From Psammoneis japonica (lineage: Eukaryota), in the NCBI GenBank assembly GCA_008632985.1, contig QPGO01000286.1, positions 1 to 64,000 of the forward strand: a DNA stretch of 64,000 nucleotides. The letters are read 5' to 3'. Both the position numbers and the translations under genes were made by a program. Positions 736 to 50,673 of the stretch are shown here, in pieces. The notes below the pieces were generated by a model. The model searched no databases, had not been told where the DNA came from, and saw only the letters and a program-made list of their open reading frames with translations. Numbering within the stretch: the first letter of the stretch is position 1; every line of letters starts with the position of its first letter.

Positions 736-981
736 TGACAGGATTTGAGCAAGATTTTGGTTTGTCACACATGATTGTGTGTGCTCTCAGCTTTGTACGT
801 GGTGCATGATGCAGTTTGCTTTCAAGCCACACAGCTCACAAGAACAATGACAGCAGCACCAACATCACAACACCAGTCTTTTGGCTCCTGCAATGGTCTC
901 TGCACGGAGCCTCATCTGCCATTTAGACAGCAGCAAGGAGTCATTGTTTTCTTCCACCCCAGCAATCTTCATTTTCTGTCA
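736..981 (+). mobile_element. Copia 3' LTR, copy 1 (246 bp)
   Basis: TGACAG...CTGTCA termini, follows the PPT, and aligns with the copies at 13638-13897 and 38185-38429. Confidence 0.9.
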
Positions 982-1420
982 CTGCTTGTTCACCCATTGG
1001 CATCTTGAGATGACCAATGCACAGTTCAATGCTCTCTTCCCACAGAACAGTGCAGCCACAAAGAAGACTCCCAAGAACTTGCTGTGCAACATTTGTGGCA
1101 AGCCAGACATTGGGCTTGTGATTGTCCAGACAAGCCCCAGACAGCCAGAGTCTAAAGTTGCTGATGGCAAGACTTGGTGCTGGTGTGGCATGTGCCACCA
1201 TTGGTCCACTCCTCATGGCGCCATTGAGCATGGTTGCAAGGATGGTGCTCCTTCTGCTCTGACACAACAAGCCAACACCCTGTTCCTGGACCCTGGCACA
1301 CAGCACCCAGATTTTGAATTTGAGTTGGGGATCAAGGACATGCTGCTTGAACTGTTTCAGGCGGCACATGCCTTGTTTCATCCTTTTGCCTCCCTTTTTC
1401 TCTTTGCTGCTCTGGGGTGA
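982..1420 (+). pseudogene. Copia gag-region fragment (Cys/His knuckle), degenerate
   Basis: KVADGKTWCWCGMCHHWSTPHGAIEH resembles the W-x-WC..C..W..H motif of diatom Copia gag. TpA-depleted. Confidence 0.55.
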
Positions 1421-3405
1421 TGGTGTTCTCAACTGCCAGCTGGTTGGTGGGGTGTTGGCATTGACACTGTGACACTTGTGCTGTCAAAGTTTGAACACAA
1501 TGCCTGTGCCAAAGCACTGTGTGCTCCTTCTTCTCCTCCACCACCCTGTTGGGCGGTGCAACAAGGCACCAAATTCTACATGAGTTGTCACTGTTGGGGA
1601 TGCTGCAGGGTGCAAGATGTCTTTCCTTCTCACACTGGACAGTGTCATGCTTCTCCAAAGTGGCGTGTTGCTTTGGTGTTGTGTTGTCATCATTCTGTTT
1701 TGTGCTCATCACAGAGGTGCACTGGGCAGTTTTGGACATGTTGGCAGCACAGAAAGGATTGATTTGGAGCGAGGTGACATGACCACAAAGCCAGCTGCAT
1801 GCTGCACACGGATGTCTCATTGTGATCATGCACTGCTGCCAGCATTGCACAAAATGGCAAAGATGGCCAAGCTGGTGCTTGTGTGTGGCAGCCAAAAGCA
1901 ATGCTGACCCGCGTCTCTCTTTGGAGGGAGCACATCTTTTCAGCTGTCTGCGTGTGTTTGTGCATGGGCAGCTCCAGGTTTTGTTCTTTCTCTATAGAGC
2001 GACATTGGGTTGTCATCTCAACTGGCCCCACTCGGGCAAAAAATCGAACCACTCAGTGGTTCGCAACTTGCGCAGCATGAAACTCACAACTTGCACAACA
2101 AAGTGGCACCCTCCCCACACACAACCTTTTGACAGAGTCAAAACGCTGTCATTCTCAATGCACCATGTTGTCAGCAACTGCTCGTGCGTGTGTGGAGCAC
2201 AGTCACCATCAAATCACCGTCATGGTCGTCGGTGGCAATTTTCTCACCCTGCAGAAACCACCGCAGAGCAGCACCAGAAAAGAAGATCGAACCATTGAAT
2301 GGTTCGCTGCGCAGACAAGTGCCAAGAGCCCCGCAGAATTGGCAAACCATGATGTGGTTCGGGGAAAATGCACAGAAATCTACGTCAAATTTGCGCCAGT
2401 GGGAAAATGCCAAAATTTCAAAATTCATCAGAAAAATGAGGCACGACGATGAACAACATGGCAGCAGTGCAGCGACTTTTAAGAATCGAGCAAACTGCTG
2501 AAATGAAGTTGGCATCTTGTCAAATGGACATTGCCTCATCATCTGATGTTGAGTCACCATGGACATCTCATTGTTGTTCACATTTTTTCCCATCATTTGT
2601 GGGGTCGTTTTTGGCTTGCCCCCCCAAACCATGTGATGGTTCGGGGCAAGCTGCGCACGAATTCTTGATTTTGCATGGCAAACCACTGGATGGTTTGTGC
2701 TGGGAGTGGGGCCAGCTGGAACATGAATTCAGCAAACACAAGTGGAGCACTTTCACAAAATGCAACTCAACTGCTGTGACACTTGCAAAGGGAACAGCTT
2801 TGACGCACCTTCGTTGCCATTGCCACCACCAGCCACGACAGGGATCATGATGAGCGCCAACTGCAAGAGTTGATCTTCAGCAGCTGCAGCAGCAGCATGA
2901 TGATCATGTGGTTGCACAGGACCCAGGACACTGTCGATTTGGTTGGGAAAAGCACGATGTCACTGGCACCCACCAACTGCTGGCGGTGGGTTCAGAGCTC
3001 CACCAACTCCTGGAGGTGGGTGCATGGGGGTCCTCCAACTCCAAAATGATTGGTGACAAGGTTGGGCCAGCAAAGCCTCCAGCTGATGCAGATCCTGAAT
3101 TGTTCCATTGGGGTTGGAGACAACACTGCCAGTTGCAATCTTGCTGATGGAGAACTTCACAACTTCAGTGGCTTCACTTTTGCCACAAAAAAATTGAATC
3201 TTGCTCGCAAGGTTGTAAAATTCAGGTGCACTTGCCCCGACAGAAATTCAGCCCATTGGCCATTGCCGGTTAAACATCAGAGTGCGACGGCCTGGGTTCA
3301 ACAGCTCTGGCTGCTCTCCAGCAGAGCAGAGAGCGGTTTCACGGTGAGCAGTTTGAACACACAGGGACACACGGCATTTTGTCGCATTTGGCAACATTTT
3401 CTTAA

Positions 3406-4299
3406 GACGGGTTCCAGTCCTGCTGCAGGTGGGACTCCGTGTGACATTGGGCCCGTAGAATTCTATGTGCGAGCCCCGCAGTGCGAGAATTCAATTGATG
3501 GACACATTTGTCTTCAACATCAAATGAACTGCCAAGTTTGTGGTGCAATTGTGCCTCTTGCCACTCGACGTTTTTGCAAATGCGCCTGCCCTGCGCGATT
3601 CTTAACGTGGTGCGGGTGCAAAAGTGGGCCAGATTCTGTGCACGCAGAGCTTGGCATGTTTTCCACACAAATCGCTAAAGTCGGCTCGCCAACTTGAACC
3701 CTCTCCAGGACGATGGAAACATGGACATTTCACATGACAAAGTGTTTGGACTGCACAACCACACTCTCCTCGACTTGTTTGTGACAAGAAGTTACAAGTT
3801 TCCATGGGTTTCTCGTTTTGCACAGCTCTTTGAAACTCGAGCGTCGCGATTTCGGCACCTTTCTGATTAGATTCATTACACATCATCAGAAACCCATGAA
3901 AACTTGCAACTTCTCATCACAAACAAGTCGAGGAGAGTGTAGTTGTGCAGTCCAAACACTTTGTCATGTGAAATGTCCAAGTTTCCATCGTCCTGGAGAG
4001 GGTTCAAGTTGGCGAGCCAACTTTAGCGATTTGTGTGGAAAACACACTAAGATCTACGTACGTAGAATCTGGCCCACTTTTGCACCCGTGCCACCTCAAG
4101 ACATTGTAGAATCGCGCTGTGACAAAAAATGTCAAAAGTTGTTGGACGGATCGCTCAACAAGTGTGCAGTGCCGTAAAATGACACAAAATGTCGAAAAAA
4201 TCACGTGGAAATCTACGTGCGCGACATACGACGTGATTCAAAAAACTGTCGATGTCACAGTTCAGCAGTGCGAGGTCCCACCTAGACCTGGAACGCGTC
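3406..4299 (+). mobile_element. MITE family A, copy 1 (contains the foldback insertion)
   Basis: TIRs GACG(C/G)GTTCCAG..GGTGGGAC; TSD TTAA at 3402-3405 and 4300-4303. Confidence 0.9.
3606..4095. mobile_element. Foldback element, 208-bp inverted arms, 74-bp spacer, TTAA target (Kolobok-like termini)
   Basis: Arms 3606-3813 and 3888-4095 are reverse complements. Flanks TTAA/TCAA. The empty site GATTCTTAAGAC is present in MITE copy 2 (~5104-5115). Confidence 0.9.
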
Positions 4300-4479
4300 T
4301 TAAATGGGTTGATGATTTGTCACAAAAAGACGCGAATTGCGACAAAATGTCCGGGTTGGCGACAAACGGGACAGAAACATTGTTCAATCAAGCGACAAAA
4401 TGATTGATGTAAAAATGAACCATTGGTTCAGCGGTTCAGCACGGCTGGCTCGGAAAGCAAGACATTTTTACTTAGAAAA

Positions 4480-4680
4480 TGACATGATGACATGGTGAAG
4501 ATGACGTCACATGCAAAAAAACAATGTCCTGGTGTGATGTCATCTTCAATGTCTTGTCTCTAAGTGATGTCAAGCATGTCACATCGCATGACATCATGTC
4601 ACATGGTGTGACACAATGTGACATCACATGATGTGATGTGACATGATGTGACATGAGATGACACAGCAGATGACGACATT
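4480..4680. repeat. Degenerate pentanucleotide microsatellite (GATGT/GACAT-like)
   Basis: Runs such as gatgtgatgtgacatgatgtgacatg. Confidence 0.7.
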
Positions 4681-4917
4681 GCAAACACACCTTTCTTCTT
4701 GTGCCTTTTGGCTTTTCCTTTCACTTGGACATTGAGAGCCTCGGGCAAAAACTCACCAGACATGACAAACAAGGTCGCAATGAAGTCATTCCCAGCCATT
4801 GAAGAGCACTCCATGCTGCAAAGGAAAAGGTCACAGGAAAGAAGAAGCATCGCGTGCACCATGAAAAAGAAAGGATCTGGGACGGCTTTGGAGCTTTGCC
4901 GCGTGCATGACGTTGCA

Positions 4918-5306
4918 GACGCGTTCCAGCCCTGGGTGGGACTCCGTGTGACATTGGGCCCGTAGAATTCTACGTGCGAGCTCCGTAGTGTGAGAATTTA
5001 ATTGATGTGTGCATGTGTCTTCAACATCAAATAAACGGCCAAGTTTGTGGTGCAATTGTGCCTCTTGCCACTCGACGTTTTTGCAAATGCACCTGCCCTG
5101 CGCGATTCTTAAGACATCACAGAATCGCGCTGCAACAAAAAATGTCAAAAGTTTTTGGACGGATCGCTCAACAAGTGCACCGTAAAATGACACAAAATAT
5201 AAAAAAATCACATAGAATTCTGTGTGCGCGACATACGACGAGATTCAAAAAACTGTCGATGTCACAGTTCAGCAGTGCGAGGTCCCACCTGGACCTGGAA
5301 CGCGTC
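4918..5306 (+). mobile_element. MITE family A, copy 2 (389 bp)
   Basis: GACGCGTTCCAG...CTGGAACGCGTC termini; TSD TGCA at 4914-4917 and 5307-5310. Confidence 0.9.
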
Positions 5307-5664
5307 TGCATTCATTGAGATGGACAGGACAGCTGTGCGCGACATTGCATTTGTTGAGACAGGACAAATTGAGCTTTGGTTCAGCACTGGTTCAGCAAAA
5401 ATCAATTGCCCTTTGGATGCTGGCTCAGCAAAAAATGTCTTGGCTCAGCACTTTGTTGCTTGTGGTTTTTGAATCATTGCAATTTTGTTCTTTTGTTGTT
5501 GAGAGATGATGTGATTTACAACCAACCTGCACTTTGGCGATGTCGTTTCAATGAGTGGGGCAATCAACAGAATTTGGCGATCGACGTCATCAACGAAAAT
5601 TCATGCGACAAAATTTGTCGCATCCGACAAATTTTGTCGGACGTCTGACAAAATTTGTTGGCAT

Positions 5665-5750
5665 GCAACACGACAAGACACGACACGACACAACAAGACA
5701 TGACACGTCACAACACAACACATCACGACACGTCACGACATGACGACTCA
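5665..5750. repeat. Pentanucleotide microsatellite (ACACG-like)
   Basis: acacgacacgacacaacaagacatgacacg runs. Confidence 0.7.
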
Positions 5751-6445
5751 CGAACGAAACACCCGCGCCTCCCGTGCCGCACACCGCACCGGACAACATC
5801 GTGCGCTTCTGCACAGTGGAGTGGAGTGCACCGGCGCGCATTGCTGCGCTGTGCCTTTTGTCAGCAGGCAGGCAGCTCTCTTGTGAACGGCAGGCAAATC
5901 TCGTGGAGACAGCACGTCCATACGACTGGGCACTTCTGAATGTTGGGGAGCGTTGTCCGCATGTCGCAAACGTCCGTCTGTCGGCGTTTGTCGGCTCGCT
6001 CTTGTCGGCGTTTGTCGTATGTTGTCGGGGTTTGTCGGATACGACAAAATTTGTCGTACGTCCGACAAAATTTGTCGCATCCGATAAAATTTGTCGAACG
6101 TACGACAAAATCGCCAAAACATTAATAAGAAAGTACAGTCTTCGCAGAAAGTTGAATTCATCATGTGGCACTGTAGTTGATATAACGTTTGTGTTTAGGA
6201 CACGCCATCGCCAATTAAATGATGATTTTGTCTTATTTATCGCCAACGATTGAAATTTGTCTCAAAGGGCGTTTTTCACGACAAATCGTCCAATTCATTT
6301 AAGGGAATGTCGCAATTGGCGACAAAATGCCGTGTGCCCCGCCCAGCAGAGGAGTCATCAAAACTTACATCCGGGTGTTTTTCATTCACCCCAAACCACG
6401 ATCGAAGCACGTCGCTCCAACAAAAATAAACGCCTTGTGTGCACC

Positions 6446-9199: not shown

Positions 9200-10560
9200 G
9201 ATCTTACTGACACCTACTATGAGCAGAATTCGGATCCGCTCAATCTGCTCCGAAAGGCGCTCTTTGTCTACATAATACAGCTCGACCGATATCAATGACT
9301 TTTGCGCGATTGGGGTCGTCTATACTCGGAACTATTTTCCGAAGTGCAATGTCATTGTGAAGGACCCAGCTTTGCTCAGTGATTCTGCACTACGCACAGC
9401 CGAATGTTTGAGCCCTTCCGACAATTTTCCGAGACCAATGTCGTCAAAGCCGTCCAACTCTCGCTCAATGCAAGTCATTCCGACTCCCAGATGAGTACTG
9501 TAGCCCCGAAAACGAGGAAGCACGCCCTCCAAATCGGACCTGCCTGCAAGCGCTTGGAACATTCTAGCCTCGTTGTCCATTTCTTTGGCGACACGCGACA
9601 TACTTGGATCTCGTTGTACCTTCACGAGAACGGATGGATATTTCGGCGTCGTGAGTAGCTGAATCGTACTCGTCATATCAGAAAGTTCGCAGTCCCAGAC
9701 AAAGAGCGTAGACGCCAGATTTTCTTGTCCTGAACTTGATCCAGTTCCGTCTCCTCGTCCAAAGCCTTTCCCATTGTTTGGGCCGCCGTTGTAGCTCGGA
9801 GGGAGTCTTGGAGGCTTTTTTCGTTGTAAATCATCGCGATTGCTAGATCTCTTTTGTTGCGCTCGAGCCGCCTTTCTTGCAGAACTTGGGTGCACCGGAG
9901 CGTTCACGAGTTCATGGTTTTCAAACCCTGTCATTGTCTTAATGCTTGAAAAACTGAGGGTTCCACATCGGTACTTGCAAAGGGGCGTGAGATTTCTAAC
10001 GCGCCATCTTCCGTTCGCTTACAGAAAAGCCATCGTTCATAAGTATGCATGATACCATAACGTCGCTTCCCGGATAACATCTGCCAGTAGAGCTGGCGAA
10101 CCAAATAATGGAAGATCTTCTTTTTAGGATTCAGCCAGTGCTCCGGAAGAGATTCTTCGTCACACATCTTTTCGCAATCAAAGTTCCGTGGCACCTCCCA
10201 TTGTTCAATAACGTACCGATGACTGTTTTCTTCTTCTTAGAAATCGAATTTCGAAGAGGGTTTAGTTTGGAAACAGGTACAACTATCGACGGCGCCGGCT
10301 GCCACTTTAAACTTTGCGTCGCTGGTCTGCACGCTTCCCTTTGGCCGGTGAAAAGAATTCGGATCGAGGACGACTCCCCCAAACCTCTGGAGCCTCTTTT
10401 TCCTTTTTCAGCAATAAGACCATCGGGGTTGGTGCAAAGATTTCAGCGACAAGTCGAACTTTGTCCATTTCCAACAAAAAGTCTGATTTTGGCAAAAATT
10501 AGCGGTTTGTTGAACACAACAACAACAGCAAATCTGATAATTGGCTTTTGAAGGTTGAAA
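9200..10560 (-). pseudogene. Frameshifted protein kinase-like gene
   Basis: Across frames: VLVK, EMDNEARMF, LPRFRG, then VLHNDIALRKIV (catalytic loop) and KVIDIGR (DFG-like). Frameshifts near 9365 and 9935. Ends are approximate. Confidence 0.7.
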
Positions 10561-10849
10561 AGTGTACTCCAGTTCACAGAGCGAGGTCCAATGGCCCTGA
10601 TGGGGGCTGGACACACTCACTCATGCTCCTGAGTGATTGGGGGTGCTCAGAGGCATCGCAAAATGACACGGGCGAAGTGTCGTGCGAGAAAATTGCAAAA
10701 TCACGAGCTGATTAAAAAAATGCCTCTGCATGTCGACCCATCCTTGACAATTGATCAATCGCCACCTTCGCAGAAATGTGCAGGACATGCACCAAGAACC
10801 TCCAACTTTGCTTTTTGGGTGCTCCATTTAAAGGCAAGTGCGAGGGTGA

Positions 10850-13090
10850 GTGCAGCCAACAACAGCGAAGGATGGTCAATGCAGAGATGGCCGATCACCG
10901 TCCTGCATGAAAAAACTGCAATGTGACAGCATCTGGGTGTGTTCTGTTGCTGGAACCCGGAAGGGATTCCAGAGGGGTCACAATCAAGCCAGCCAAAAAC
11001 ACCCATTTGAGATGCACTCGCAACACAGAAAGGAAAAGACTGTGAAGAGACTGCAGCACAGGACAGGCAGGCAGGCCAGACAGATCCGATCCATGCCGCA
11101 ACCTGTCTGTGGGCTGCTCGTCTGCAGTGCTGGAGCAGATGCAGCTGGGTGGAAGAGGTGCAGCAGACAGGCAAGAGGCTGAAGAAGCAGTCCTTCCCCT
11201 GTCCTTTGAACCTGGGGAGGCCCCCAATGTCAATCAGCGGCAGTGTCGCCATGCAGTTGCACGCTCATGTCTCCTTGAGCAAGGAAGTTAAATCCTTCGA
11301 GTGCTCACTTGCCTTCCATCATGTGCATCCTCTCCTTGGTCAAGAGGGGAAAAGCAGGCCCTGCCAAGGAACCCAAGGGCTCTGGGTTGACAGCCATCAA
11401 GAAGGGGCCCCACATTTGTCGCTGAGGTCAAAACCTTTCAACACCCAAGTGTGTCACACTGCTGGCTCAAATGTCATGCATGGGCTGATGCGCTCTCAGC
11501 TCAACGCGATTTGCTCCTCTCTGGCCACTGCTGAGGCCTGTCTGTCCCATGCCAAGGTCCTGTCCTTGCTTCTCACAGTTGCTGATGCTCTGAAGGTGGC
11601 ATTCACAAGTCCTGCAAAGACAAAAGAAGTGGCTCAGGAGCACACTTTTCCAGCCATTTGGTGCTCAGGAGCCAGCACATCAGTTTCACCTTGCAAGGAT
11701 GACTTTGTTGGACCTCTCAAGAAGCCTGCCATGCTGTTGCACCATTTGCCTCAAAGGCATTGCCAAAGCACTGCATGTGGTGGGTGTTGGATGTGTTGCT
11801 TGGTCTTTTGTGGTCATTGCTGGAGTCCTGAGAACCCTGAAGGTGCCTGCACGCTGTGTCCCAAAGGCCAAGGCTGGACTTTTGAGCATTGCCTGCTTGC
11901 TGCAGATGCACCTGAATAAGACCATTGAGCCAATGGCAGACTGAACCATGTCCTCAGCAAGTCCAAGAACAATGAAGTGCAGCCCAGGCATGGAATTGAG
12001 GCACTGGTTGAGCCCTTGACTAATTTTCTTTTCAGATGGGCCCATGTGAATCAAGTGAGTCAACAAATTTGTCAGGAGTTTCATCTTGCTCTGTTGGCAA
12101 TTGTGGAAAAGAATTGCAATCTCTCACCTGCTGAGAAAGAGTCACTCTGTTGGCATTTTTGCCTTGGACATTTAAGCTTGGGGCATTTTTTGATGTGCGC
12201 GGGCATTCTGTCCCTTTCTGAGGGAACTTGACATCTGCACGTGCATGCTTGTTTCATTGATTGTCCCCCTGTTTGCACCATGTGCTAACATGGCAAACAG
12301 AAATGCCGTCCAAGCCCTGGAAAGGCTTCTCATGTGGCGAGGGATCAAGCAGGAGCTCTCAAAAAGAACAATCTGTTTCCTGTGTTTCACGCATGGCCAT
12401 TTGAAGCATGCCTTTGGAAAAGAAAACACACACAACATCAGTGCTCAGGTGGTGCCATCTTTGTGGACCATGCATCAGGCCACGTTGACAATGTTCAACA
12501 TCAAGCTTGCCTTGGCTCTCATGAGACTCTGAAGGCCAAGCCAATGTTGAGGTTCATTGTTGCAAGTTTGGTGTCATTCCTCTGGAATGTTTGAGCATGA
12601 CAATGGGGAGGTGTTTGCATCAGTCAACTGTCATGTCCACTTGGAAACTTGTGCTCAAGCATCAAAGTGTGCCAATGTTGGAGCTCATTGTCACAATGGA
12701 ATTGCAGAATGTGCTGTGCACACTGTGATGTCAACAGCATGGACCACGATGCTGCACGCTGCAATTCATTGGCTCAATGCTGCTGATGCCACTCTGTGGC
12801 CACTTGCCGTGGATCTCTGTGGATCACACGGTTGTGCTTTGCAATGCCATGCCTGACCCATCTGCGTGTTGAAGTCCCAAGGATGTGTTTGCAAAGATGC
12901 GTGGCATCCCCATGCTTGATTCCAGGATTGTTGTGCTTGGGGTTGCCCTGCTTGCATTCTTGACAAGAAAATTGCTGATGGAAAGAAACTGCCGAAGTGG
13001 AAACCCTGCGCAAGTTGGCATGTCTCTGTGTGGGACTCAGCTCTGAGCACACCTTGTTGTCAGTCCCGCCCACTGGCACTGAGTCTTGAA
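10850..13090 (+). pseudogene. Copia gag-protease-integrase remnant, heavily mutated
   Basis: WCSGASTSVS (protease DSGA-like), NLSPAEKE..WHFCLGH (pre-integrase), GGAIFVDHASG, DNG, GAHCHNGIAE, LWPLAVD (integrase core). Confidence 0.85.
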
Positions 13091-13637
13091 ACAGAAAAAA
13101 CCTGAATTCTGTGTTTAAGGTGCTGTTGCACTTCCACCCCACAACTCTGGCAACAAGCTAACCCACACCCCCAGCACACCTCCGTGCAGCAGGGGTGCAC
13201 AACAATTTGTCAAGATTGATGCCACAAGGCTGTGGTGCCCACCAGGAATGGCTGGCAGAACCAAAAACATGCCACCAGCAAAATGAAGCTTGAGCAGCAA
13301 AGTGCTCGACACTGCAGTTGGGCCTTCTTCTTGGGATCCAAATTGGTGACAAAGGTGAAATGGGCAGTGTGGAAAAGTTTCAACTGGAGGATGAGTGGGG
13401 CACAAATGATTGACCACCAACTCAAATTGAACTGGTCTCAAATTCAGACTTCTGAGAGTGGCAACAACCAAGAATTGTTTGCCACATGGAGCGGAGAACT
13501 TGGGTGGGCAACAGGCAGAAGAGGGGGGTTGTTGACATTGGAGATGCATGGATCAAGAGCAGTCAATGGTTTGGTGAGTCGATCGTCCAAAATGACCTTC
13601 ATGACATGCAGAAAATGCACTGAAACCTGTGTGGACT

Positions 13638-26111: not shown

Positions 26112-29100
26112 CAACCAGGGAAGACAACAGCCTGCGCTCAACAATTGCATTTACTGTGCCAACAGGGCCGCAACTCTGTCGACCCCCGCAAAGCCTTCTG
26201 TGCGGACCTGTCGCGTGTGCTCCAAGAGTTTCGTGCGGAGAACAACCGAGAAGTGATCTTGTTCGGTGACTTCAATGCGGGCTTCTCTTTGGATGCAGAC
26301 TCCCTGGCTGCACTTGCCCAATGCTTCAATTTGTCCGACATCCTGTTCCAAATCCTTGGTGTTTCCGAATTTTCCACATGTGCGAGAGGCTCCAAAAGAC
26401 TGGACCATGTTCTGGCATCTCCAGGAGCTTTGTCTGCGGCTCGCCTGGGCGGGTGTGAGGCATTTGGATGCCGTGTCATGTCAGATCATCGGGCACATTT
26501 TTTGGACTTCGACACGATGGAACTGTTCAGGAACCCGACCGTCGATCTACCTGAAGCTTCCTTTCACGACATTCAGGCTTCTTCCAAACCCCAGGTCACC
26601 TCGTGTTTAACCTCCGCTGGACCCATGCTTGACAGCTGTTCTGTCTTGGAACGATCCACCCAGCTGATCGAGTCTGACACTCCGAATCACGAACTGGCAG
26701 AACGCTTGGACCGAGATCTTCTTCAGTTCTCCCTGGCGTCCGCGAAAAAGTGTCGATCCCAGACGCGTTCCAGCTCTAGGTGGGACCTCGTACTGCTGAA
26801 CTGTGACATCGATAGTTTTTTGGATCGCACCGCATGTCGCGCACGTAGAAAGGTGCGTGACTTTTCTGAAATTTTGTGTCATTTTGTGGCACACTTATTT
26901 ATTGAGCGATCCGTCCAACAACTTTTGACATTTTTTTCTTCTACGCCATTTGTAAATGTCTTAAGAATGGCGTAGGGCAGGCGGATTACCGAAAACGTCA
27001 AGCGGCAATGGTCATAATTGTACCACAAACTTGGTCATTTATTTGATGTTGAAGACAAAAATGTCCATTAATTAAATTCTCGTAATACGGAGCTCGTACG
27101 TAGAATTCTACGGGCCAAATGTCACAAAAAGTCCCACCTAGGACTGGAACCCGTCCCCACCGTGAACCCGACTGGTCGGTCAAGTTGGCAGATCTCCGTT
27201 ACAGAGTGTACATCTTCACTCGTGTTCTTTCCATGATGAGGAACCGTCTTGATCATGTCGCCCAGATCCAGCTGGTGCGTTCAAAGCTGATGGGCTCATT
27301 CTCCATTCCAACGACATTTCATGAATGTCAGGTTGCCTTGCGCAAGGCACAGGCTGAATGCAAGGCAGTTGCAAAGGAGAGCATCGAGCAACGTGAACGG
27401 GAACTGGCAGAGAAGATTGCCAAATTGGACCCAGACGGTGCAGCGGCTGCCCGTAAATCGGCAAAAATTATTCGGAACATGCAGAAGTCAGAAGAAACCG
27501 CCCGGTTGTTTTGCAAGATCAACGTGTGCAAGGCAAAACATGACACAGGAGTCAACAGCGCACAGGTCCCTCGCAACCCGGCCACCAATCCTAAAGAGTG
27601 CGAAGATTGGATCACGATCAATGCCCCAGATGACTTTTCAGCAGCATTGTGTTCTCGGAATCAGCGACACTTTGGACAGGCACATGGCGCACCTCCTGCA
27701 GTTCCTCCCCTGTCCGTGGATCTCGGATGCGAAGGTGACACAGTCATGGCTGACTTGATCTTAGATGGAGAACACGACACATCCTCTCTCAACAACGCTG
27801 CTGCTCTCTTCGTTCAACATCTTCAACGACGTTCACCAGTGTCGGTGTCTAACTTCCTGACTGAATCGGATCTCAAAGGGAAACTCAAGGTGTGGAAGGA
27901 AACTGCATCCACTTCTGTGTTCTTGGGCCTTCATTTGGGACACTGGAAAGCAATGCACGCAGCTCATTCTCATTCAGGCTCCACTGCCCCCGAAGGTGAT
28001 CTCACGTCTGAGTGTCAGCATTTGAATGAAGTTCAACAGCGGCTGATTCGGACTCGCTTGAATTTGTTAAACTGTGCTCTACGTTGGGGGCACTCGCTCA
28101 ACAGGTGGAAGGACATTGTCAACATCATGATTTTCAAAGAGCCAGGAAACAACAAGATGCATCGTCTCCGAGTTGTCCACGTCTGTGAGGCAGATTTCCA
28201 ATTGATGTCCAGTGTGAAATGGAGAGTCTTGGCACAGAACATGGAACACCGTCGTCTGTACAATCCAGGCATTTGCGGGACGCGTCCCTTTTTGAATGCT
28301 CACACACCGGTGCACCTTGAGGAACTTGTGCTTGAGATCAGTGGAGCATCCCAGAAAACTGCGATTCACAGTGATGGAGATTGTACCTCATGCCATGATT
28401 GCAACATTCCTGCTTTAACAGCACTCGAAAGCCGCAGCAACGGCATGCCCAAATCAGCAACTCAGACAGCAAACGCCACTTTACATGATGCAAGACACTG
28501 GTCAAAGACAGTTTGTGGCCTCTCAACATCATCTTGCTCCCATTCGGACGAGTTCCCTGTCTACGGCACTGGCCAGGGCAGCGGAAATTCACCCTTTTAC
28601 TGGAATCAAATTTGCAACAGCTTGTTTTGGCCATTTGACAGTCAAGCTCATGGGGCCTGCTTTGAAACTCCCGACAGGACAGTTTCAATGCGGATGCATG
28701 CCAGAGGGTGTGTTGACGATGCTTCGAATCAAGTGAACGCCTTTTGTGCTGATCCCCAACCAGATGCGCTGGACCTTGTCCCTCGAATGTAGCAAGATGA
28801 TCAGCTGTGGTGCGACCTCCTGGACGCGGCAGGACATGAGCTGGAGCTTCCAAAGTGCTCGTTTCATGCTGTTGAATGGCATTTTACTGCTGATGGAGAG
28901 CCACACCTTCGGGCGTACAATGACGAGATTGACATTGAAATCCACTCCGCCGACAGATCCACCAAAAGATCCAGCACCCAACTTTCCGCTTGTTGCTCCT
29001 CCCACAAGACACTGGGCCATTGCAAATCTCCTGCAGGCACTCAGAAGACTCAGTGCAAAGCACTGAAAACAAAAAGTGACGACATTTCTCTGTTTCTCTG

Positions 29101-31956
29101 GTTGTGTCCATTGGACCGTCATGAGGCATGGACTCACTGCGTGCCACCTGGCCTCCACCACGTGCATCCTTCCGAGTGCACATTTTCAACCGAAGGAATC
29201 ACTTGAGATTCAACGCAAGGCCATGCGAACTACATTTGCCAAGTGCGGCCACAACCGCAACACCAAGCGGGATGTTTCATTCGGACCGCATGCCTTGGGA
29301 GGTGGAGGATTCCGTTCTCTTGACGTGGAGCAGGGTGTCGCTCAATGTTTGCAGTTCCTTCGACACTGGTGCGGAAATGGGCAACCTCATGCTTTGTCCC
29401 ACATTGCAGTGGCGTGGACACAGTTCCAGCTTGGAACAGGGTCAAGTTTTCTGCAAGATGTAAACACAAAACTCCCACACTCCGAGCCCAAATGGTTCAT
29501 GTCAATGAGATCCTTTCTTGCCCGCACAGACGCTCACTTCGAACTGGACTTCACTGGCGTCCTTCCCACACAACGAGAGAATGATCAATGCATCATGGAT
29601 GTGGTGCTGGACTCTAATCTTTTCTTGGAAAAAGAGATCAGGTGGGTGAATTGTTGCAGGCTGTTCCTGCGGGCACTTGCTGTTTCAGACGTCACTCTTC
29701 CCGATGGTCGACATTTGGATGAACTCAAGTTGAAAGGGCAAACTTCCCTTGTGAGCAGCATGTCGTCACTCAATCCAGTCGAACAGGCATGCCCGTCTAC
29801 TCGCACCTGGAAACAATGGAACCGGGCGATGGCTCTGTTGTGCAACGAAGGTGCCTCCATCCTCTGAACCCCTTCAGGTCAATGGACCGTTCCTGCCTCC
29901 AAGATGCGCATGCTTCATCCGGCCTGTTACGAGCGCTCCAAAGAGTTTTTGTGTGTCCGCTCTGATGCGGGTTATCAAGTGTTTCCAGTCAAGGATGCGT
30001 GCGCTGAAACACTTCAGCAGTTGGAAACAGTTCCCGATCTATCCCCATTGGCATCACCTGTCATGGTGGACATGACTCTAGACGGCAGATGGCGAGCAAG
30101 ATCCATTGTGTCCCCAGTGAAGATGCCTCCAACAATTCCCGTCCTCGGTGACTTCTGCAAATGGCTGCGGTCTTTGTCATTGTGGGAGTCAACCCTGTTC
30201 AGTGTGCTTCACATGCATGCATCGGCATTTGAAATGGCGGAGTCCCTTGGGCGCTTCCGTGCAGAAGCAGGGAGTGATGGTTCCGTGTTGCATTTTAATG
30301 GCACCTTTGGCTGGATGCTAGCGGCCAACGGAGTGATTCTGGTGGATTGTGCAGGACCGGGCTTTGGATTCCGACTGTCCTCGTGTCGTGCAGAAGCACA
30401 CGGATTTTTGTCAGTTCTCCACTTTCTTGTTCGAGTGATGGACTTTTGCAACTGTTGTTTTTCACACAGTGTGGTTGCCCATTGTGACAATTCCTCTCTG
30501 GTGCGCAACGTTGCCAACTTTCATTCTCCCCCACCACTTCCTTTGGATGCTGATGATTCACAACGACAACAAGATTTTCATTGTCGGAATCACATCGCTG
30601 ACACGTTGGCGCCGGATTGGGACGTTGTCCACGAGATCTTTGCTTCACTAACAAGTTTGGAGGCCCAATGCAACGGCCATCTTGAAAGCAATGTCGTCAA
30701 CATGAAGTGGATTAAAAGTCATCAGGATGACAACACTCCGTTCGAGTCCCTCCCGTTCCCAGCAAAATTGAATGTTAGAGCCGATGGGTTGGCAGGTTTG
30801 TTTCAGGGTCAATGCACTGGAGACACCTCAATGGCTCCCCAAATGCCCCATTGTCATGCACCACTGAATGTCCAGTCGGCGTTGGTGAACTCGAAATTTA
30901 AATCAGTTCTCCGTTGCAAAGCTTCCAGCCCAGCTCTGATCCAACATGTGCAGGAGAAGTGCGGATGGTCTGACCCAGTGTGCGAATCTATCGATTGGAA
31001 AGTTCATTCCAAACTGATGTCTCGCAACATCCGACGAAAGGTGAGCACCATGAAATTGGTTCAGGATCTGCTGCCGACGAACAAGATTGTCCACAGATGC
31101 AATCCCACACGCCCCGACTGCTGCATGCACTGCCAACATCCCTTCGAAGACAGGGATCACATTCTGTGTTGTGCCCACAATGCATCATGGTGGCACACGT
31201 TCCTCCAAGGATTGCGGAAGAAATGTGACGACACACACACTTCCCTGTCTACACAAGACCTGTTGTTGCATGCCTTGGAAGGTTGGTTCAATGAGGAATT
31301 GCCCCATTCTACCCACGTCCATCACAGTGTCACAGAGCTGTTTCAATCTCAAGACGACATTGGTTGGCGCCACATTTTCAGTGGGCGTTTCTCCTGTCTG
31401 TGGAATGAGGCACAAACGTCACACTTGGAGTCTTCCGGCTTGTGTTGCTCTCCATCCGATAAAGACAAAAGATTAGACTGGGCGGCAACTGTTGGCAGAC
31501 ATGTGTGGTCACAATGGTGGGACTTGTGGGACTCCCATGATGATGCAGCACACGGACACAATTCAGAGACGCGAAAGTCTTCGCAACGACAGGACGCAGA
31601 GGCGGAGGTTAAAGAGATCCACTCTGGGGCAGATGAGCACTTGGCCCGGGAACAAGCAGAGTTGTTTACTTTGGCGGATGAACATCTCACCCATTCCACC
31701 CACAGACTCCGAAACTGGCTCGCCATGGCAAAACCAATGTTCAAGTCGAGCATTTGAGAGGCCCGGCGTCTGGCTGTCAGAGGCACGTGCACCATCGCAA
31801 GCTGCTTTGGCGCGGCATCACCAGAGGGTGATGCCGATCTTGACCAATTGTTGTGTGCTCCTGCTGCACCCAGTGCACTGGGAGTGTGGGTTGGCTTGTT
31901 GCTGGAGTTGCAGGGTGGAAGCGCAGCAGCACTTAAAATCAGAATTTGGGTTTTGT
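26112..31956 (+). mobile_element. 5'-truncated non-LTR retrotransposon ORF2 (APE, RT, RNase H, Zn finger; Ambal-like architecture), disrupted
   Basis: GDFN..RLDHVL..SDHRA (APE), GTGQGSGNSP and GCVDD (RT), SDGS..RAE..HCDN..WIKSHQDD..NVRAD (RNase H). 15-bp TSD TT(G/A)AAATCATTTGCA at 26097-26111 and 31957-31971. Confidence 0.9.
26762..27155 (-). mobile_element. MITE family A, copy 3 (394 bp), inside the LINE
   Basis: TSD CCCA at 26758-26761 and 27156-27159. Removing it restores the in-frame LINE sequence KKCRSHREPDW. Confidence 0.95.
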
Positions 31957-32546
31957 TTAAAATCATTTGCAGCCACAGGCATGGTGCCGGCAGCAGGTGC
32001 ACAGTCTCCCAGCACACAGTCTCCCAGTTCCGGTGTGATTGGCTTTCAACCCCCCAAGTCAAAGGACACAGATTTGGTTCAGATGTTTGACTTCTTTGAG
32101 GGAATTGCTCCTCCTTTCACTTCTGGCAATGGAGTCAGGCATTTGGAGGAGGACACATCGTGGCGTTTGGCGTGGGAGGAGAAGGACAAAAGGGCCCTTT
32201 GTCATTGGAAGCAGCTGATGGACATTGTGGACAAAGTGCTGGTTGAGAACTCAGCACACCCTCAAGTTCCAGTCATTGCCAAGTTGAATGCTTTTTGTGT
32301 CAAAGATTGCAACAAGGCATTGACAACTGCTTTGAAGAAGTTCCCTGAACAACAATGGCACTTTGCCACTCCAGCTGGCAACAGCACAAATCAAGGGGAA
32401 CTGGCCAATGTTTAGAAGTCAATGTGTGTGTTGAGATTTTCTTGAGAGGCTGGTGATGGAACGACAGAGTGCATGAAAGATGATCACATTTGCTTTCTAC
32501 GTTGGTGCCTCTTCTTGCACTTTAAACAAAACCCTTTCGCAGCATT

Positions 32547-33778
32547 TTAAATGAAACCATCCACTGAATCAATTGAAACAGCGCCACTCCAATGAACACA
32601 TTTGAACTCGATGCCAGTGCCATTTAGAATGTCCACCACTTTGACACAGATTTTGCCATCTGGCTTGCCTTGCCCATTCCAAATGTTGTCATTGAGAACG
32701 TTGTGTTTGGCATGAGTGAACCATGTGGCACATTGCGAGGCAACACCACCTGCAGAGTTTTTCTTTGCAACGAACAACTTACAGACCTTGTCAAATTTGT
32801 CACGGTCCTCCTGAGGGACTTGGAAACCCTTGGGTGGGGGGTGCTTCTGATGCGCTGCGATGTGCGCAAACAAGCCCCTCACATTCTTTAGAATGTTGGG
32901 CAGTGCATTGCGGTTTTTCTTCACCTTGCCACCTTCCTCCCACGTGGTCTTGGGCCACTCAATGCTGTCCAGCTTTCTGAAACCAGCAATTGGATCTTTC
33001 TTGGGGGGGCATGTTGAAGGTGCTTGCAGCAGCAGTGGTGGCAGCATTTTTGCCGCCCTTGCCCTTGCCAGCCTTGGCACTGCTTGCAGCAGCAGCAGCA
33101 GCAGCGGCGGCATTTTTGCCGCCCTTGCCCTTGCCAGCCTTGGCGCTGCTTGCAGCAGCAGCAGCAGTGGTGGCAGCATTTTTGCCACCCTTGCCCTTGC
33201 CAGCCTTGGCACTGCTTGCAGCAGCAGCAGTGGCAGTGGCAGTGTTTTTGCTGCCCTTGCCCTTGCCAGCAGCCTTGGCACTGCTTGCAGCAGCAGCAGT
33301 GGCAGTGTTTTTGCCGCCCTTGCCCTTGCCAGCCTTGGCACTGCTTGCAGCAGCAGCAGCAGCAGTGGCAGCATTTTTGCCACCCTTGCCCTTGCCAGCC
33401 TTGGCAGCACCCTCCTTGGCCTTGAGGCACGCAGCATTGCTGGCACTCTTCCTTGTGGGCTCAACGGCAGCATTGGCAGGGGCGGCCTTCCTCTGTGCAC
33501 GCAGAGAGAAAAAGGTTTAAATTAAAAAAAAGCTTTGTTTAAAAAAGGTTGCCGGGCATTTTGTTTGGAACAGGTCACCGCGCGTGTGTCACCGCGTGAC
33601 ACAAGCAAGACAGGAAACAGACCGGTCCAATTGAGATGGACACACACACAAACAGACGTGCCTTGCCATCCGACTTGTTGCTGCCATCAGGAGCAGCATC
33701 CGTCATTGTGGAGTCCCTTGGTGCTTCTTCACTGCTCTCTTTTTCTTTTTGACGGGCAGTCGCCATGGCTGATGCCAT
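32547..33778 (-). pseudogene. Two-exon gene convergent with the Crypton YR, encoding Lys/Gly/Ala repeats and an unknown C-terminal domain
   Basis: Exon 33778-33662 joins exon 33492 onward in phase 0 (donor GCACGT, acceptor CAG), giving RKAAP..TRKSA..(AKAGKG)x6. A +1 slip in the G7 run (33003-33009) separates the C-terminal PKKDPIAGF... frame. Confidence 0.6.
33020..33410. repeat. Six imperfect ~60-69-bp tandem units with variable GCA tracts
   Basis: ttttgcc(g/a)cccttgcccttgccagccttggc(a/g)ctgcttgcagcagc repeated. Confidence 0.9.
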
Positions 33779-34779
33779 GGCGTCGCATCGCATGTCCGGT
33801 GTCGGCAGAGGGCGATGACAAGAGAGACGGTGAGAGGGAGGTGATGGTTTTGTGTCTTTGATGGTTTGATTGGTGTGGGCATTGGATGCGCGAGATGGAA
33901 TCTTCAAGTCGTGGTCAGGCGCACGATGACGTCACATGCAACAAAATCCTGTCTGCACGGAGGGGGTGTCATTCAGCCAGACGGGTCAGTCCGGACTGGG
34001 GCGCGCAGCGCCCACATTGGAAGTGCATCGGAATGAACCGGTCCATGCAGTGGGGGGTGACAAAACAACTGACATTGCACTTAAAACAAATTGAACACAT
34101 TTGTTTAAAAGACAAGTTGTGCGTCATGAAAGTTTTCACACAAATTGTAAAAATGCACTGGCGTTCCTCACCAAAATGACCGCAGCCAAATTGGTTTTCG
34201 GGTGTGCAGTCATTTTGTGCATTTTGTGCAACTGCGCCACCCGTGGGTGCACAGAATTGCCAGCAGCTTCACAGAGCATGAAAATGACCGAAATGATGAC
34301 CATGACCCAAAAAATTAGCCCTCTGTTGAAGAAAAGTGTAACCAGACGCACGCTGGGAATGTGGAGTGCCAAAATGCTGGCCGTTGACGGTTTTTAGAAT
34401 TGCTTGGGGCCACCCACACTCGAGCAGTGGGAGTTCAAAAGCAATGATGAAACCAATGATGACGAAAGCCTTGTTGACAATGCCGATGGGGTTTGCTCCC
34501 CAGTCAAGCATTGCCTCGCTGCACCTTCCAAAGTGGCCTCCCGACCCACCACCGCACACTGAGCCCTTTTTTCTGTGGCATCTCTGTCATGTTGTTTCGG
34601 TTTTCACCATTTTCCTCATTGTCTCCAACCCTTGCGCAATTGCCACGACCCCTTTCCTGCCATTTCCCCCACCCTTGAGTTTCATCCCCTCCTCTTTTGC
34701 CGATTCTTCAACCCACCACAAACAACAGCACAGCCCCTCCCTTTGGCTCCTTTCTCAACCAGTCATTCTCAATTAAATT

Positions 34780-36900
34780 GTGCACAACTGCCTCCCTGAC
34801 ACCCTCAACAGCCCCCTTTGGACCTTTCCCTTCCGAACTCTTCCACGCGATTGCTCTCGTGACATCGGTCGTGATTTCCACAATGGCCCTCTCTCTCCAT
34901 CTTTCCCCCATGACTCCTTTTCTGACACCATTTGCAGCCCTCACGATTTTGATTGTGACACCCCTGACAGCCCGTTTTCGGCAACCTTCCTTCAGGTCAC
35001 CACATCATTTGACATCCCCAACTGCCCCTGCCCCACAACATCATCCCATTCCAGCACCCATCCAACTGTGCTCCACAACCCCTTTCCTTCTCCTTCGACA
35101 CACAAAAAATCAACTCAGTGCATCAACACCCCGACTCCAAGCATCAACCAAGACACCGACTTCGATTTTGCCCTCCGTTCCCTCCTGCACTCTGCCATGT
35201 CTTCCCCACAGGACAAATCTAATTGGCCCTCTCTCCAAGAGAGCATTCAGAACTCCCAAAGCTCCCAGGAATCTCAGTCCTTGCTTCCTGCCCCCACTGC
35301 TCTGCGGACTGCTGTGCCTTTATCTCAACCTTCATCCAAACCTTTGCCTGCGCCCCTGCCCAAATCTCTGCCCCAAACCGCACATGCAACCACCTCTCCC
35401 AGATGTGTTCCAGCTCTGGGTGGGACCTTGCACTGCTGAACTGTGACACAATTGTTTTTTGTCATCCATCGCATGTTTCGCGCACACATTTCTGCGTGTT
35501 CTGTTGTAAAAAATTGTTCCACACTGCCTGTTTTGTGAAGCCAAGGGCTTTCTGTCATCTGCGTTTGTGACAATAAAAATGTGCTGGGTGCATTCTTTGG
35601 TGTCTGAAGAACATGCCCGGGCACACTGCAAAGAATGTGCTTCAAGTGTGGAGGAGGAGATGCTTTCGCAAAATTGCCTCTTTTTCTGTTGGCAATCATT
35701 GACATGTGCATTGCTTGATGATTTTACTGCGGAGCTTGCACGCAGAATTCTGCGGGCCCAATGTCACAAAAAGTCCCACCCAGGACTGGAACCCATCCCC
35801 AACCCGCCATCCCTGGGGACTCTTTCTCTGTTTCCGCTGCAACTGCCGCCCCCTCCACCACCAAAATCTCCGACGACTCCGATGTCTGAATGCAAGTCAA
35901 CACCCCTGCCACCCCTGCTGATCCTGCAACATCTTCCGCCACCGTCAAACTCCTCCTCCAATTCCTGCATCCGTCAGACCCTGCCAACAAGCCCGAACCT
36001 GCCATTGACTCCGATGGAGTCCGAGCCATCATTCAAACCACTCTTGCCACACATGCCACCCGTGAACTTCAGCTGTCATTCAAAACTGTCAACATTGCTT
36101 TCTCCGAAACCAAACGCCACTCCCGCCCTCATCACAACAAATGGGCCTCCCATTTTGAGGTCACCTTTGCCCCCATTCCTTCCATCAAGCCCTTTCACTT
36201 TCATCTTTTCCATGACCAAGTGCTTTGTTTTGCCATGCAAAAATGGCACCTTCACCCACCTTTGCAATTCAAGCACTGCTCAGCCACCTCTGCTTGCCCA
36301 GACTTCCTCTCTTCTGATGCCAAAGACACTCCAACGTCACCCAACCCATGGACCCAATGTGCCACCTTCCTCATTCCAGCCTGCAACTCCTTCACCCAAC
36401 AAGCCCGTGGCATCCCAGCCGGAACAAACCCCAAGACCTGCGGCCAATCCCGACGCACCTGCGAATTCTCACTCGAGAAAATCCATGATCATGTCAAATC
36501 TCTCCTCCCTGCCACCTCCTCTGACCCCAATCTTTCTCTCTTCTCCAAACACAACACCTTCATTGACCATGTCAGCATCCAACCATCCTGCTTTCCTGGT
36601 TTCTCTGAACAGACTTCGAAGATCCCCAAATCGGACGTCTTTTTTCTTGCGACCTCTGCACCCAAAATGTGGACTTCCTTTTTGTCCATCATCAACCCTT
36701 CCAACACACTGCCTCTGATCATCCACATCCTTGGCTTGTCCCTGTCTGTCACACCCTTCCCTTCCTTTCAAAACACACTCTCCATTGCTCAATGTTTGCA
36801 AGCCATCAACAAACAACAGGTGGAAAGCTGCGTCATCGTCACCAGCCGCCTTGATGTCTCCGCACCCTCCGACTGCAACGAGCTCCTTGCTGCACACATT
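34780..36900 (+). pseudogene. C-rich, Tyr-free long reading frame, possibly a retroelement ORF1; interrupted by a MITE and cut off by the Copia gag junction
   Basis: Protein-like ORFs 34780-35401 and 35890-36912. No recognisable motif. Confidence 0.35.
35402..35797 (-). mobile_element. MITE family A, copy 4 (396 bp, divergent interior)
   Basis: GATGTGTTCCAG...CTGGAACCCATC termini; TSD CCCA at 35398-35401 and 35798-35801. Confidence 0.85.
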
Positions 36901-37372
36901 TGTCGGACTTGAGAAGCGCAAAGGCAAGTGGGTCATGTTTGATGCCTCGTTTAAAGTCACGCACGGGATCATGTGGTTTGGGTGGCAACAAGCCAGGAGT
37001 GGGAGCAGATGGTGCTGTGCCCATGGAGAGGGACGCTGCATGCTCGGGACTAAGACGACAGTTGTTGAACTCCTCTTGTGTGAACAATTGAGGGTTGTTG
37101 CCAACATCCGTGCCGCCACATGCTTTTGCTGTGCACAGGCTAATCAACGCAGCTGTCTGTGCTTTGCAACCACGTGGCAAAGGCATTTGATTGGTTCTGT
37201 CGTTGTGCACAAGGGCATCCAATTGCATTGGAGTAAAAGTGAAAAGGTCCTGATGCGAGTCGGTTCCATCAATGTTGAGAGCGGAGCGCAATGGACTGTC
37301 GGCAGCTTGATTCAGAACAGCACCCAGAATGTGCTCGAGGCCATCAATTTGTTGTTTCCTGGTGAGAACCAT
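36900..37372 (-). pseudogene. Copia (CoDi-like) gag N-terminus, truncated
   Basis: DPVRDFKRGIKHDPLAFALLKSDK resembles the diatom Copia gag FKRGIKRD motif and lies downstream of LTR copy 3. Confidence 0.8.
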
Positions 37373-38184
37373 GTTGCAACTGGGTGGGTGTCGGAACTGG
37401 CTGGAGTCGGAGGGTGAGCTTGAAATGACTTGAAACTTGACTTGAATCTTGACTTGATGTCATGGACTGTCTTGAGAGTCAGAAGCCACCGGGCTGTGAT
37501 GTCCCATTCGCAGTCAAGTGCCAAGCTTCCCATCCGGTCTGCAGAGTTGTGCCGGCACGTCCGAACCCGCGGCTGGCGATGCTTTGGGTTGCTTGAGAGT
37601 GGAGCAACGGGTTAAAAACCCCTGCTGACAAGCCAGCCAGAGGTGGACAAGACCTCCGGACCGTTCTTGTTTTATGTCAGTTGGATGACCTGATCAGACT
37701 GGCCAAATCTGGTGCTGTGGAGGGACAAACAAACGTGGGAAATGCACCCTCGCCCCAACGCAGGCTGTGATCACAAATTGCTTCCTCTCACAGTTGTCCT
37801 CGTGCACCCTGCAGGACTGTGGAAGACCAGCAATCCGGCGCAGACATGAGATGGTAGACTTGGAGTGCGTGGAGCAGAGCCAGAGTCAGGGATTTATGTC
37901 GTGTGTGCGTGGACGCGTGCAGATGTGTTGGTGGGATCCGCTGTGAGGAATCCGGAATCTCGGATGTCTGAGAATTCAGGAATTCCTGGCCAAACAAATG
38001 TCCGTTGAATGAACACATCCAACGATGGGAGGTGTCGGATAAATCCAAACGCGCAGATTTAATCCAGCACTCAGCAGTGAAGAAGGTAGACACATGCTTC
38101 CACCGCCAACGGTGCGCGTCGTCGAAAATTTCTCGATTACGATGATGAACGCTCAACGGACAATGAAGAGCAAGGCCGCCAATC

Positions 38185-38429
38185 TGTCAGAAAATGAAGA
38201 TGACTGGGTGGAAGAAAACAACAACTCCTCACTGCTGTCTAAATAGCAGATGAGTCTCCGTGCAGAGACCGTTGCAGGAGCCGAAAGACTGGTGTCGTGA
38301 CATCGGCACTACTGTCATTCTTCTTGTGAGCTCTGTGGCTCGAAAGCAAACTACACATCGCGCGACGCGCGGAACTAAGAGCACACACAATCATGTGTGA
38401 TAAACTAAAATCTTGTTCAAATCCTGTCA
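38185..38429 (-). mobile_element. Copia LTR copy 3 (245 bp), in the 5'-LTR position
   Basis: TGACAGG...TTTTCTGACA, followed by a candidate PBS (gatTGGCGGCC), a leader and gag. Confidence 0.9.
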
Positions 38430-38449
38430 CCCCCTTGCTAGCTTGAGGG

Positions 38450-50474: not shown

Positions 50475-50673
50475 GCTCACCGTGCAAACAACACGACAAT
50501 GGCCAAAATGCCGTTCGTTCTCGAAAACTGACAGGGGCAGCCTCCAACTTTTTTCACAGCATGTTGCATTTGATGTGATCAACAATCTCATGAAGAAAGT
50601 TAGAGGCCGCCACACCCACATTGCGTTCAATGAACGGCATTTCGGCCATTGTCGTGTTGTTTGCACGGTGAGC
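50475..50673. repeat. 42-bp inverted repeat with a 115-bp spacer
   Basis: 50475-50516 and 50632-50673 are reverse complements with one CG/CA mismatch. Confidence 0.85.

Follow-up and report, generated by a model that had tools for sequence, protein, structure and literature searches.

Transitions from TpA to TpG and CpA in the mobile DNA of a 64-kb stretch of the diatom Psammoneis japonica

The stretch of DNA analysed here (the window) comprises 64,000 nucleotides of contig QPGO01000286.1 from the diatom Psammoneis japonica (assembly GCA_008632985.1), and holds retrotransposons and other mobile elements around a block of host genes. An earlier reading of this sequence (the original prediction) had proposed that three copies of a long terminal repeat (LTR) directly record the conversion of the dinucleotide TpA (TA) to TG or CA. 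TA is scarce over the whole window, with an observed/expected (o/e) ratio of 0.22. A two-state cut separated 49.7 kb of TA-poor DNA (78% of the window), with o/e ratios of 0.11 for TA, 1.63 for TG, 1.57 for CA and 0.57 for CG, from the remaining 14.3 kb of TA-kept DNA, with ratios of 0.55 for TA and 0.98 for CG. All other dinucleotides were nearly unchanged between the two. The segments were cut on TA itself, and the independent part of the result is their match to mobile DNA: the identified genes lie where TA is kept, and the mobile elements where it is scarce.

15-6017, 10313-26776, 27213-38039 and 41838-43584: TA-poor segments 1 to 4 of the two-state cut
47045-48169, 48586-51154, 51786-57421 and 57884-63163: TA-poor segments 5 to 8 of the two-state cut
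38040-41837: host gene block, with a kelch-like gene on the forward strand and an EamA transporter gene on the reverse strand; TA o/e 0.55, used as unaffected control

The GC content of the TA-poor blocks is 0.48-0.54, and their stop triplets number 277 TAA, 164 TAG and 2101 TGA. The loss of TA covaries with that of CG (Spearman 0.60, 46 windows), and the two can be uncoupled, with TA below 0.2 and CG above 0.8 in 7 of the 46. LTR, Ngaro-type, non-LTR and inverted-repeat elements are all affected.

Exactly three LTR copies occur in the window, at the positions originally given.

2-735, forward strand: copia pol end of the LTR1 element, with polypurine tract and three in-frame stops
736-981, forward strand: LTR1, apparent 3' LTR of a copia-type element, with 2 TA and 2 CG left
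13638-13897, reverse strand: LTR2, apparent 3' LTR of a second copy; 2 TA and 7 CG
38185-38429, reverse strand: LTR3, the least eroded copy; 7 TA and 12 CG

LTR1 stands in DNA strongly depleted of both TA and CG (TA o/e of the flanks 0.07 and 0.05) and LTR2 likewise inside TA-poor DNA, while LTR3 lies at the edge of a TA-poor block, adjoining a host gene. LTR1 and LTR3 both begin with TGACA; the alignable part of LTR2 spans about 13650-13897, and the 12 extra bases from 13638 end like LTR3. LTR1 and LTR2 are preceded by a polypurine tract and internal copia sequence, of which LTR3 keeps about 20 similar bases. The label copia for 2-735 is our assumption from its motifs; among its matches, one cluster member of P0148 is named reverse transcriptase. 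At 851-1420, directly after LTR1, there is a piece with a Cys/His knuckle that we take to be gag-like, and the LTR1 element likely lies inside another retrotransposon. No 5' LTR partner for any of the three was found in the window, so that none of them belongs to a cognate pair, that is, the 5' and 3' LTRs of one insertion in the same orientation. Each pair differs by 6-10 transversions, which points to lineage divergence and separate insertions. The three look like the 3' LTRs of separate copia insertions. A degenerate LTR motif gave no matches in metagenome contigs.

Comparison of LTR1 with LTR3 recovered every difference quoted in the original prediction: the five TA pairs (six sites; tttAgtttAtc/tttGgtttGtc, ctcTtag/ctcTcag, tgTag/tgCag, cagTag/cagCag and gcTatt/gcCatt) and the two reciprocal TG/CA pairs (cagTGagg/cagCAagg and agtTGttg/agtCAttg). 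The claim that most differences fall into TA and CG classes also held, for 24 of the 37 differing bases: six single TA/(TG or CA) changes, eight single CG/(TG or CA) changes, four TG/CA doubles (8 bases) and one TA/CG double (2 bases), beside five other transitions and eight transversions. The eight CG singles bear out the claimed CG to TG/CA changes, whose direction is supported by evidence outside the trio. Jointly, the two classes take in all transitions that fall in pyrimidine-purine steps. These make up about half of the sites, and the counts were therefore tested against 50%. Such steps took 24 of 29 transitions between LTR1 and LTR3 (P = 1.1e-4), 19 of 26 between LTR1 and LTR2 (P = 0.01) and 18 of 23 between LTR2 and LTR3 (P = 0.002), against 4 of 22 in a control tandem repeat in a TA-kept, host-like open reading frame (ORF; P = 0.91); the P values are approximate, because doubles are not independent. 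LTR1 and LTR3 differ by 14 single TA or CG changes, and in every one of them it is LTR3 that carries the TA or CG (binomial P = 1.2e-4). Under the explanation proposed below, the three LTRs would represent three stages of exposure, LTR1 the most exposed, LTR2 the next and LTR3 the least.

The pattern in the trio is thus real and beyond chance; its direction, which the original prediction also took the trio to record, has to come from elsewhere. A consensus with TG/CA ancestral was to count against the prediction, and the three-copy majority is indeed TG/CA at 5 of the 6 TA sites, at face value a contrary result. We discarded this majority as an uninformative polarity test; LTR1 and LTR2 have the same TG or CA at 5 of the 6 sites. 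Reciprocal TG/CA pairs had been attributed to an ancestral TA or CG hit on opposite strands. The third copy gave CG at two of seven such sites and TA at none, so that CG ancestry found some support and TA ancestry did not; five of the seven, including both quoted ones, were left undecided by it. The direction from TA to TG/CA was supported by four other lines of evidence: a Ngaro-type element with split repeats, the loss of conserved Tyr residues, a nested insert and one site in an independent sequencing run.

54026-62475, forward strand: Ngaro-type element with the A1-[ORFs]-B1A2B2 layout, a presumed tyrosine-recombinase retrotransposon; TA is erased and most CG kept
54026-54244, forward strand: split repeat A1, partner A2 at 61985-62203; 4 of 219 bases differ, all in the TA/CG class
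61740-61984, forward strand: split repeat B1, partner B2 at 62227-62475; 15 of 245 bases differ, 14 in the TA/CG class, with no transversions
57488-60418, forward strand: open reverse transcriptase (RT)/RNase H-like ORF, 976 aa
60211-61467, forward strand: open recombinase-like ORF, 418 aa

The split direct repeats of 54026-62475 follow the Ngaro layout, A1-[ORFs]-B1A2B2, as given in the available text of PMC8547959. Together, the A and B repeats differ at 19 of 464 bases, 18 of them in TA/CG steps and none by transversion; the differences consist of six TG/CA doubles, four TA singles, two CG singles and one other transition. The fitted chance of a hit was 0.76 (0.57-0.89) per TA, 0.036 (0.006-0.11) per CG and 0.002 per other site, in a fit that assumes repeats identical at insertion and even strands, carries no time scale, and bases the last figure on one event. 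Equal rates were rejected (P = 4e-7).

The two Ngaro ORFs had 77 and 33 homologues, proteins without a name, at about 36-50% identity, and a Pfam search assigned the 976- and 418-codon ORFs to no family; their RT/RNase H and recombinase labels are our assumption from motifs. Both remain open over these lengths despite heavy mutation, because TAA and TAG have been erased. Within the TA-poor element, which was inserted as one piece, 57422-57883 forms a TA-kept patch (o/e 0.65), explained either by patchy, stretch-wise hits or by later conversion from a fresh copy.

Conserved residues give the direction of change. Against their homologues, the Ngaro ORFs (57.5-61.5 kb) kept only 3 of 14 conserved Tyr (8 had become Cys, 2 His and 1 Trp), versus 355 of the 445 conserved residues of other kinds (P = 7e-6). 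The copia pol end, compared with 150 homologues, showed Cys at 7, His at 2, Phe at 4 and Tyr at 1 of 14 Tyr-dominant columns. For both elements together, at a 70% conservation cut, Tyr to Cys/His occurred in 13 of 18 cases and Cys/His to Tyr in none of 28 (P = 8e-8). The host kelch-like gene (about 38.7-39.8 kb; 35 homologues, the named ones mostly from diatoms, namely Extubocellulus, Cylindrotheca, Nitzschia and Bacillariaceae, with two Symbiodinium entries also among them) kept its conserved Tyr in 4 of 4 cases.

These results bear on the reverse direction, in which decay of the type of repeat-induced point mutation (RIP), or of methylated CpA, made TA from CA or TG. The three-copy LTR majority agrees with it, and diatoms carry DNMT4 enzymes related to fungal RID (PMC9998398, available text). 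Under it, about 0.1 TG/CA doubles would be expected between the Ngaro repeats, where six were observed, and the repeats are TA-poor (0.11) rather than TA-rich; with no Cys/His to Tyr change among 28, we consider this direction extremely improbable.

Cys and His at Tyr columns are also seen in homologues from outside the window. Among the 150 copia homologues, 14, from other assemblies, had Cys or His in at least half of their Tyr columns, and the ten whose source was traced come from ENA, JGI and Logan; a mutated query itself favours mutated matches, and the count is a hint that the process may operate in other genomes too. Three homologues from other assemblies (P0112, P0113 and P0033) were very low in Tyr (0.9-1.3%), with raised Cys and His in P0112 and P0033; one of these low-Tyr proteins is a homologue of the host kelch protein. 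They are possibly mutated copies elsewhere. A search for loci related to the recombinase homologue P0113 gave 24 pattern matches, none of them confirmed.

A nested insertion supplies a relative age.

26760-27163, reverse strand: small inverted-repeat element, nested in an ORF of an eroded non-LTR element; keeps TA

Nesting was concluded because the non-LTR frame is interrupted; at the insertion borders, a search for a target-site duplication found only matches of 3-4 bases. Compared with the copy at 4910-5308, 12 TA are found only in the nested element and 3 only in the other. The family occurs at 3405-5308, 26757-27163 and 35397-35803. One member is broken by a 500-base hairpin element (3600-4101), and another hairpin lies at 50471-50677. 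The host of the insertion, a long non-LTR element at 26097-31757 with RT-like and RNase H-like ORFs and an Exo_endo_phos domain (Pfam), is TA-poor with CG partly kept, and presumably resembles the diatom Ambal elements. Among the 28 ORFs scanned with Pfam, matches were the kelch motif, the EamA transporter, NDC10_II (25.4 kb) and the endonuclease domain just mentioned (26.1 kb). NDC10_II falls in a TA-poor block at 24000-26051, which we take to be a likely Crypton-type DNA transposon from the association of that domain. A tandem repeat at 33021-33406 lacks TA, and one of its frames reads Ala/Gly/Lys-rich units.

Reads of two further runs, X1 and X2, were compared with positions 37900-42100, and 40 of the 364 differences were among those listed. 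In X2, the LTR3 family proved very high in copy number, with summed depth of up to about 240,000 per bin versus about 30-190 on genes, and loose ends fell at the LTR3 borders (38188 and 38429); X1 gave no depth on LTR3. At 38356, where LTR3 has CA, X2 had TA in 89% of depth (15 contigs). LTR3 thus belongs to a high-copy family, yet is the least hit of the three, which leans towards targeting by domain rather than by copy number. A second repeat family, with summed depth of about 6,000 in X2, abuts LTR3 at 37900-38181. X2 also holds diverged second copies of the kelch (38941-39245) and EamA (40870-41406) genes, with 55 and 54 letters different. The 32 gene-block differences listed for X1 and X2 (7 of TA class, 7 of CG class, 9 other transitions and 9 transversions) mix alleles with paralogues and were excluded from the argument.

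Systematic long-read miscalls at modified TpA in repeats could imitate such a signature, as errors that depend on the strand could randomly yield TG, CA or TA and be influenced by the flanking bases. The sequencing platforms of the window and of X1 and X2 are unrecorded, and the read comparison barely covers TA-poor blocks. The X2 contigs range over 80-100% likeness (225 at 99 or more, then 336, 559, and 319 under 90), so that a separate set of reads also shows a varied family; the altered Tyr columns recur in copia homologues of other assemblies (14 of 150); and, in the available text of the report on the alga Bigelowiella natans discussed below, its signature was called from Illumina reads. 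We regard an assembly artefact as very unlikely.

The change is strictly tied to a 5' T. In 10 repeat pairs, TA/TG differences affected 46 of 80 A-bearing sites, against 12 of 302 for AA/AG and 10 of 249 for GA/GG. AA was not depleted (AAT ratio 0.99), and steps starting with GA showed a small A deficit (ratios 0.87-0.92). A:T to G:C change was limited to TpA, on either strand, except for five T to C changes outside TA beside LTR3, and was confined to mobile DNA (TA o/e 0.11 versus 0.55; kelch Tyr 4 of 4 kept). All three codon phases have lost TA, as have the non-coding LTRs.

Whether a TA survives depends on the bases on either side of it, with survival ranging between 0.01 (ATAT) and 0.80 (TTAA). 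In an additive fit, the base 3' of the A contributed 1.94 for T, 1.28 for C, 0.74 for G and 0.20 for A (standard errors 0.08-0.15), giving a loss order of TAT>TAC>TAG>>TAA. Twelve overlapping repeat pairs gave 52 single events with an orientation; in these, CTAC was hit 12 times and GTAG once, and TTAC 4 times and GTAA never; this skew indicates that the flank effect lies 3' of the A.

Selective avoidance of UpA, or a general GC bias of conversion in repeats, would agree with the low TA of host DNA (0.55) and the A deficit at GA steps. Such forces would have to destroy conserved Tyr and to act in every codon phase and in non-coding LTRs, in blocks whose GC is no higher than 0.48-0.54 and whose non-TA A/G differences amount to 4%; we consider them highly improbable. 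If retrotransposon RNA were edited from A to I, and reverse transcription made the edits permanent ahead of insertion, this would account for the 5' T, since ADAR prefers a 5' U according to the available text of the B. natans report, and for the excess of Tyr to Cys over His (8:2 in Ngaro and 7:2 in copia), a hint of strand bias. The same skew also follows from the flank rule, because the Tyr codons are TAT and TAC. The six reciprocal TG/CA doubles in the cognate repeats would require hits on both strands in separate copies, and inverted-repeat elements and the likely DNA-type element with NDC10_II (24-26 kb) are affected as well, which leaves RNA editing a very improbable source.

Taken by itself, the loss of TA to TG/CA in mobile DNA, with its direction, is in our judgement highly probable. 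For its cause, we propose that a host enzyme would deaminate the A of TpA in silenced repeat chromatin, replication then fixing G. Timing after insertion is suggested by the split repeats, assumed identical at insertion, and by the younger nested element that keeps TA; targeting to heterochromatin may be reflected in TA and CG losses that covary and can be uncoupled. The altered base would be the A rather than the T, and the candidate enzyme is of ADAT/TadA type. The CG to TG/CA class would be a separate process, the ordinary decay of methylated CpG, as expected from the known CG methylation of diatom transposons. To this whole reading, post-insertion deamination of TpA adenine in silenced chromatin by an ADAT/TadA-type host enzyme, we give an even chance.

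The same targeting of TpA after insertion could operate through other chemistry, with a modified T or A at TpA being excised or misread and the wrong base put in by a polymerase of repair or translesion synthesis. Such chemistry accounts equally for every pattern result; the strict need for TA goes beyond the preference for YA that TadA editors show, and the covariation of TA and CG loss is as expected of repair around methylated DNA. Abasic-site bypass usually gives transversions too, and there were none in the 464 cognate bases. Polymerase eta causes A to G at both TA and AA, a pattern at variance with undepleted AA and with AA/AG differences (12 of 302) like those of GA/GG (10 of 249). TA loss is also strong where CG is kept. 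We hold such chemistry to be rather unlikely, though it is the chief rival to deamination.

Several points weigh against the deamination reading. From sequence, an altered A looks the same as an altered T. LTR1 and LTR2 have identical products at all five sites where both have lost TA (1 in 32 if strands are even); shared descent fits this as well as flank-biased parallel hits, flank bias making parallel same-strand hits likelier than 1 in 32. The 10 repeat pairs share copies, and the flank baseline is TA-kept DNA, not ancestral elements. The X2 majority state at the TA sites of LTR3 itself lies outside the differences listed, and the copy at 37900-38181 differs from the X2 majority by the five T to C changes outside TA noted above (three TG to CG and two other). 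Editors of the TadA type take CA as well, yet in the proteins it is CG decay that prevails: conserved Arg had become Cys, His or Gln in 6 of 43 cases, and His, Gln, Cys or Trp had become Arg in 1 of 53.

A broader proposal, that a chromatin-guided DNA adenine deaminase is a genome defence common to the algae of the stramenopile-alveolate-Rhizaria (SAR) group and rewrites TpA in every silenced mobile class, is more tentative still, and in our view falls somewhat short of an even chance. Such an enzyme would be a natural adenine base editor, working stretch by stretch with a TAT>TAC>TAG>>TAA fingerprint, and the mirror image of fungal RIP. The findings would extend a process described for two viral inserts in a rhizarian alga (one 2026 preprint) to the bulk of diatom mobile DNA, and TpA mutation may be a wide eukaryotic defence. 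The question of the enzyme is testable, since diatoms accept CRISPR knock-outs, and the flank order provides a fingerprint for candidates; a natural DNA adenine editor, if confirmed, would interest base-editing work. In practice, TA erasure makes LTR dating unreliable, keeps dead elements out of sight of Pfam (no match on long open ORFs), and leaves stop-poor ORFs that would pass as genes for gene callers.

The TpA signature is in print for only one unrelated alga, B. natans, in the literature searched, and no report of TpA loss in a diatom was found there (subscription journals lie mostly outside it). According to the available text of Mettrop et al. (10.64898/2026.01.13.699255), new mutations from TpA to TpG or CpA arise about 1000x above background in integrated viral DNA of B. 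natans, transposase and reverse transcriptase domains are over-represented among TpA-poor genes, and an ADAT2-type deaminase with the motif HxE-PCxxC is proposed; that text does not mention diatoms. The process in B. natans is ongoing and vegetative, and active in only some of the lines. In both algae, going by that text, the change affects either strand and only foreign or mobile DNA. They differ in lineage, one being a diatom (Stramenopiles) and the other a chlorarachniophyte (Rhizaria), and in extent: the diatom elements hit, of LTR, Ngaro-type, non-LTR and inverted-repeat kinds, span 78% of the window and are near saturation (TA 0.11, versus 0.45 in the nucleocytoplasmic large DNA virus region there, in the text available). 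CpG decay runs alongside here, and the 3' flank order has no counterpart in the main text of the preprint. The rate was measured in B. natans, whereas in the diatom only the scar is seen, with a hit chance of 0.76 per TA versus 0.002 per other site (one event).

ADAT, TadA and ADAR resemble the process in changing A to G with a 5' pyrimidine preference, and differ in that their natural substrates are RNA. TadA-derived editors prefer a 5' pyrimidine (YA), as stated in the available text of 10.1101/2024.11.19.623682. Diatom transposons are CG-methylated by DNMT5 (PMC9998398, available text). Decay of methylated CpG accounts for CG to TG/CA in the LTRs, but cannot remove TA, which is hit about 20x as often as CG in the Ngaro repeats. 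RIP in ascomycetes (RID/DIM-2) is similar in making dinucleotide-specific transitions on both strands of repeated or mobile DNA and in wrecking coding capacity. Homology between copies sets off RIP, which acts before meiosis. RIP is a C-to-T process that enriches AT-rich words (PMC12543289, available text). In the diatom, TpA is not raised by C:G to T:A change but lowered, and Cys/His to Tyr is absent (0 of 28). Unlike RIP, the A:T to G:C change here removes TA and with it TAA and TAG stops, and the ORFs die by missense and stay open.

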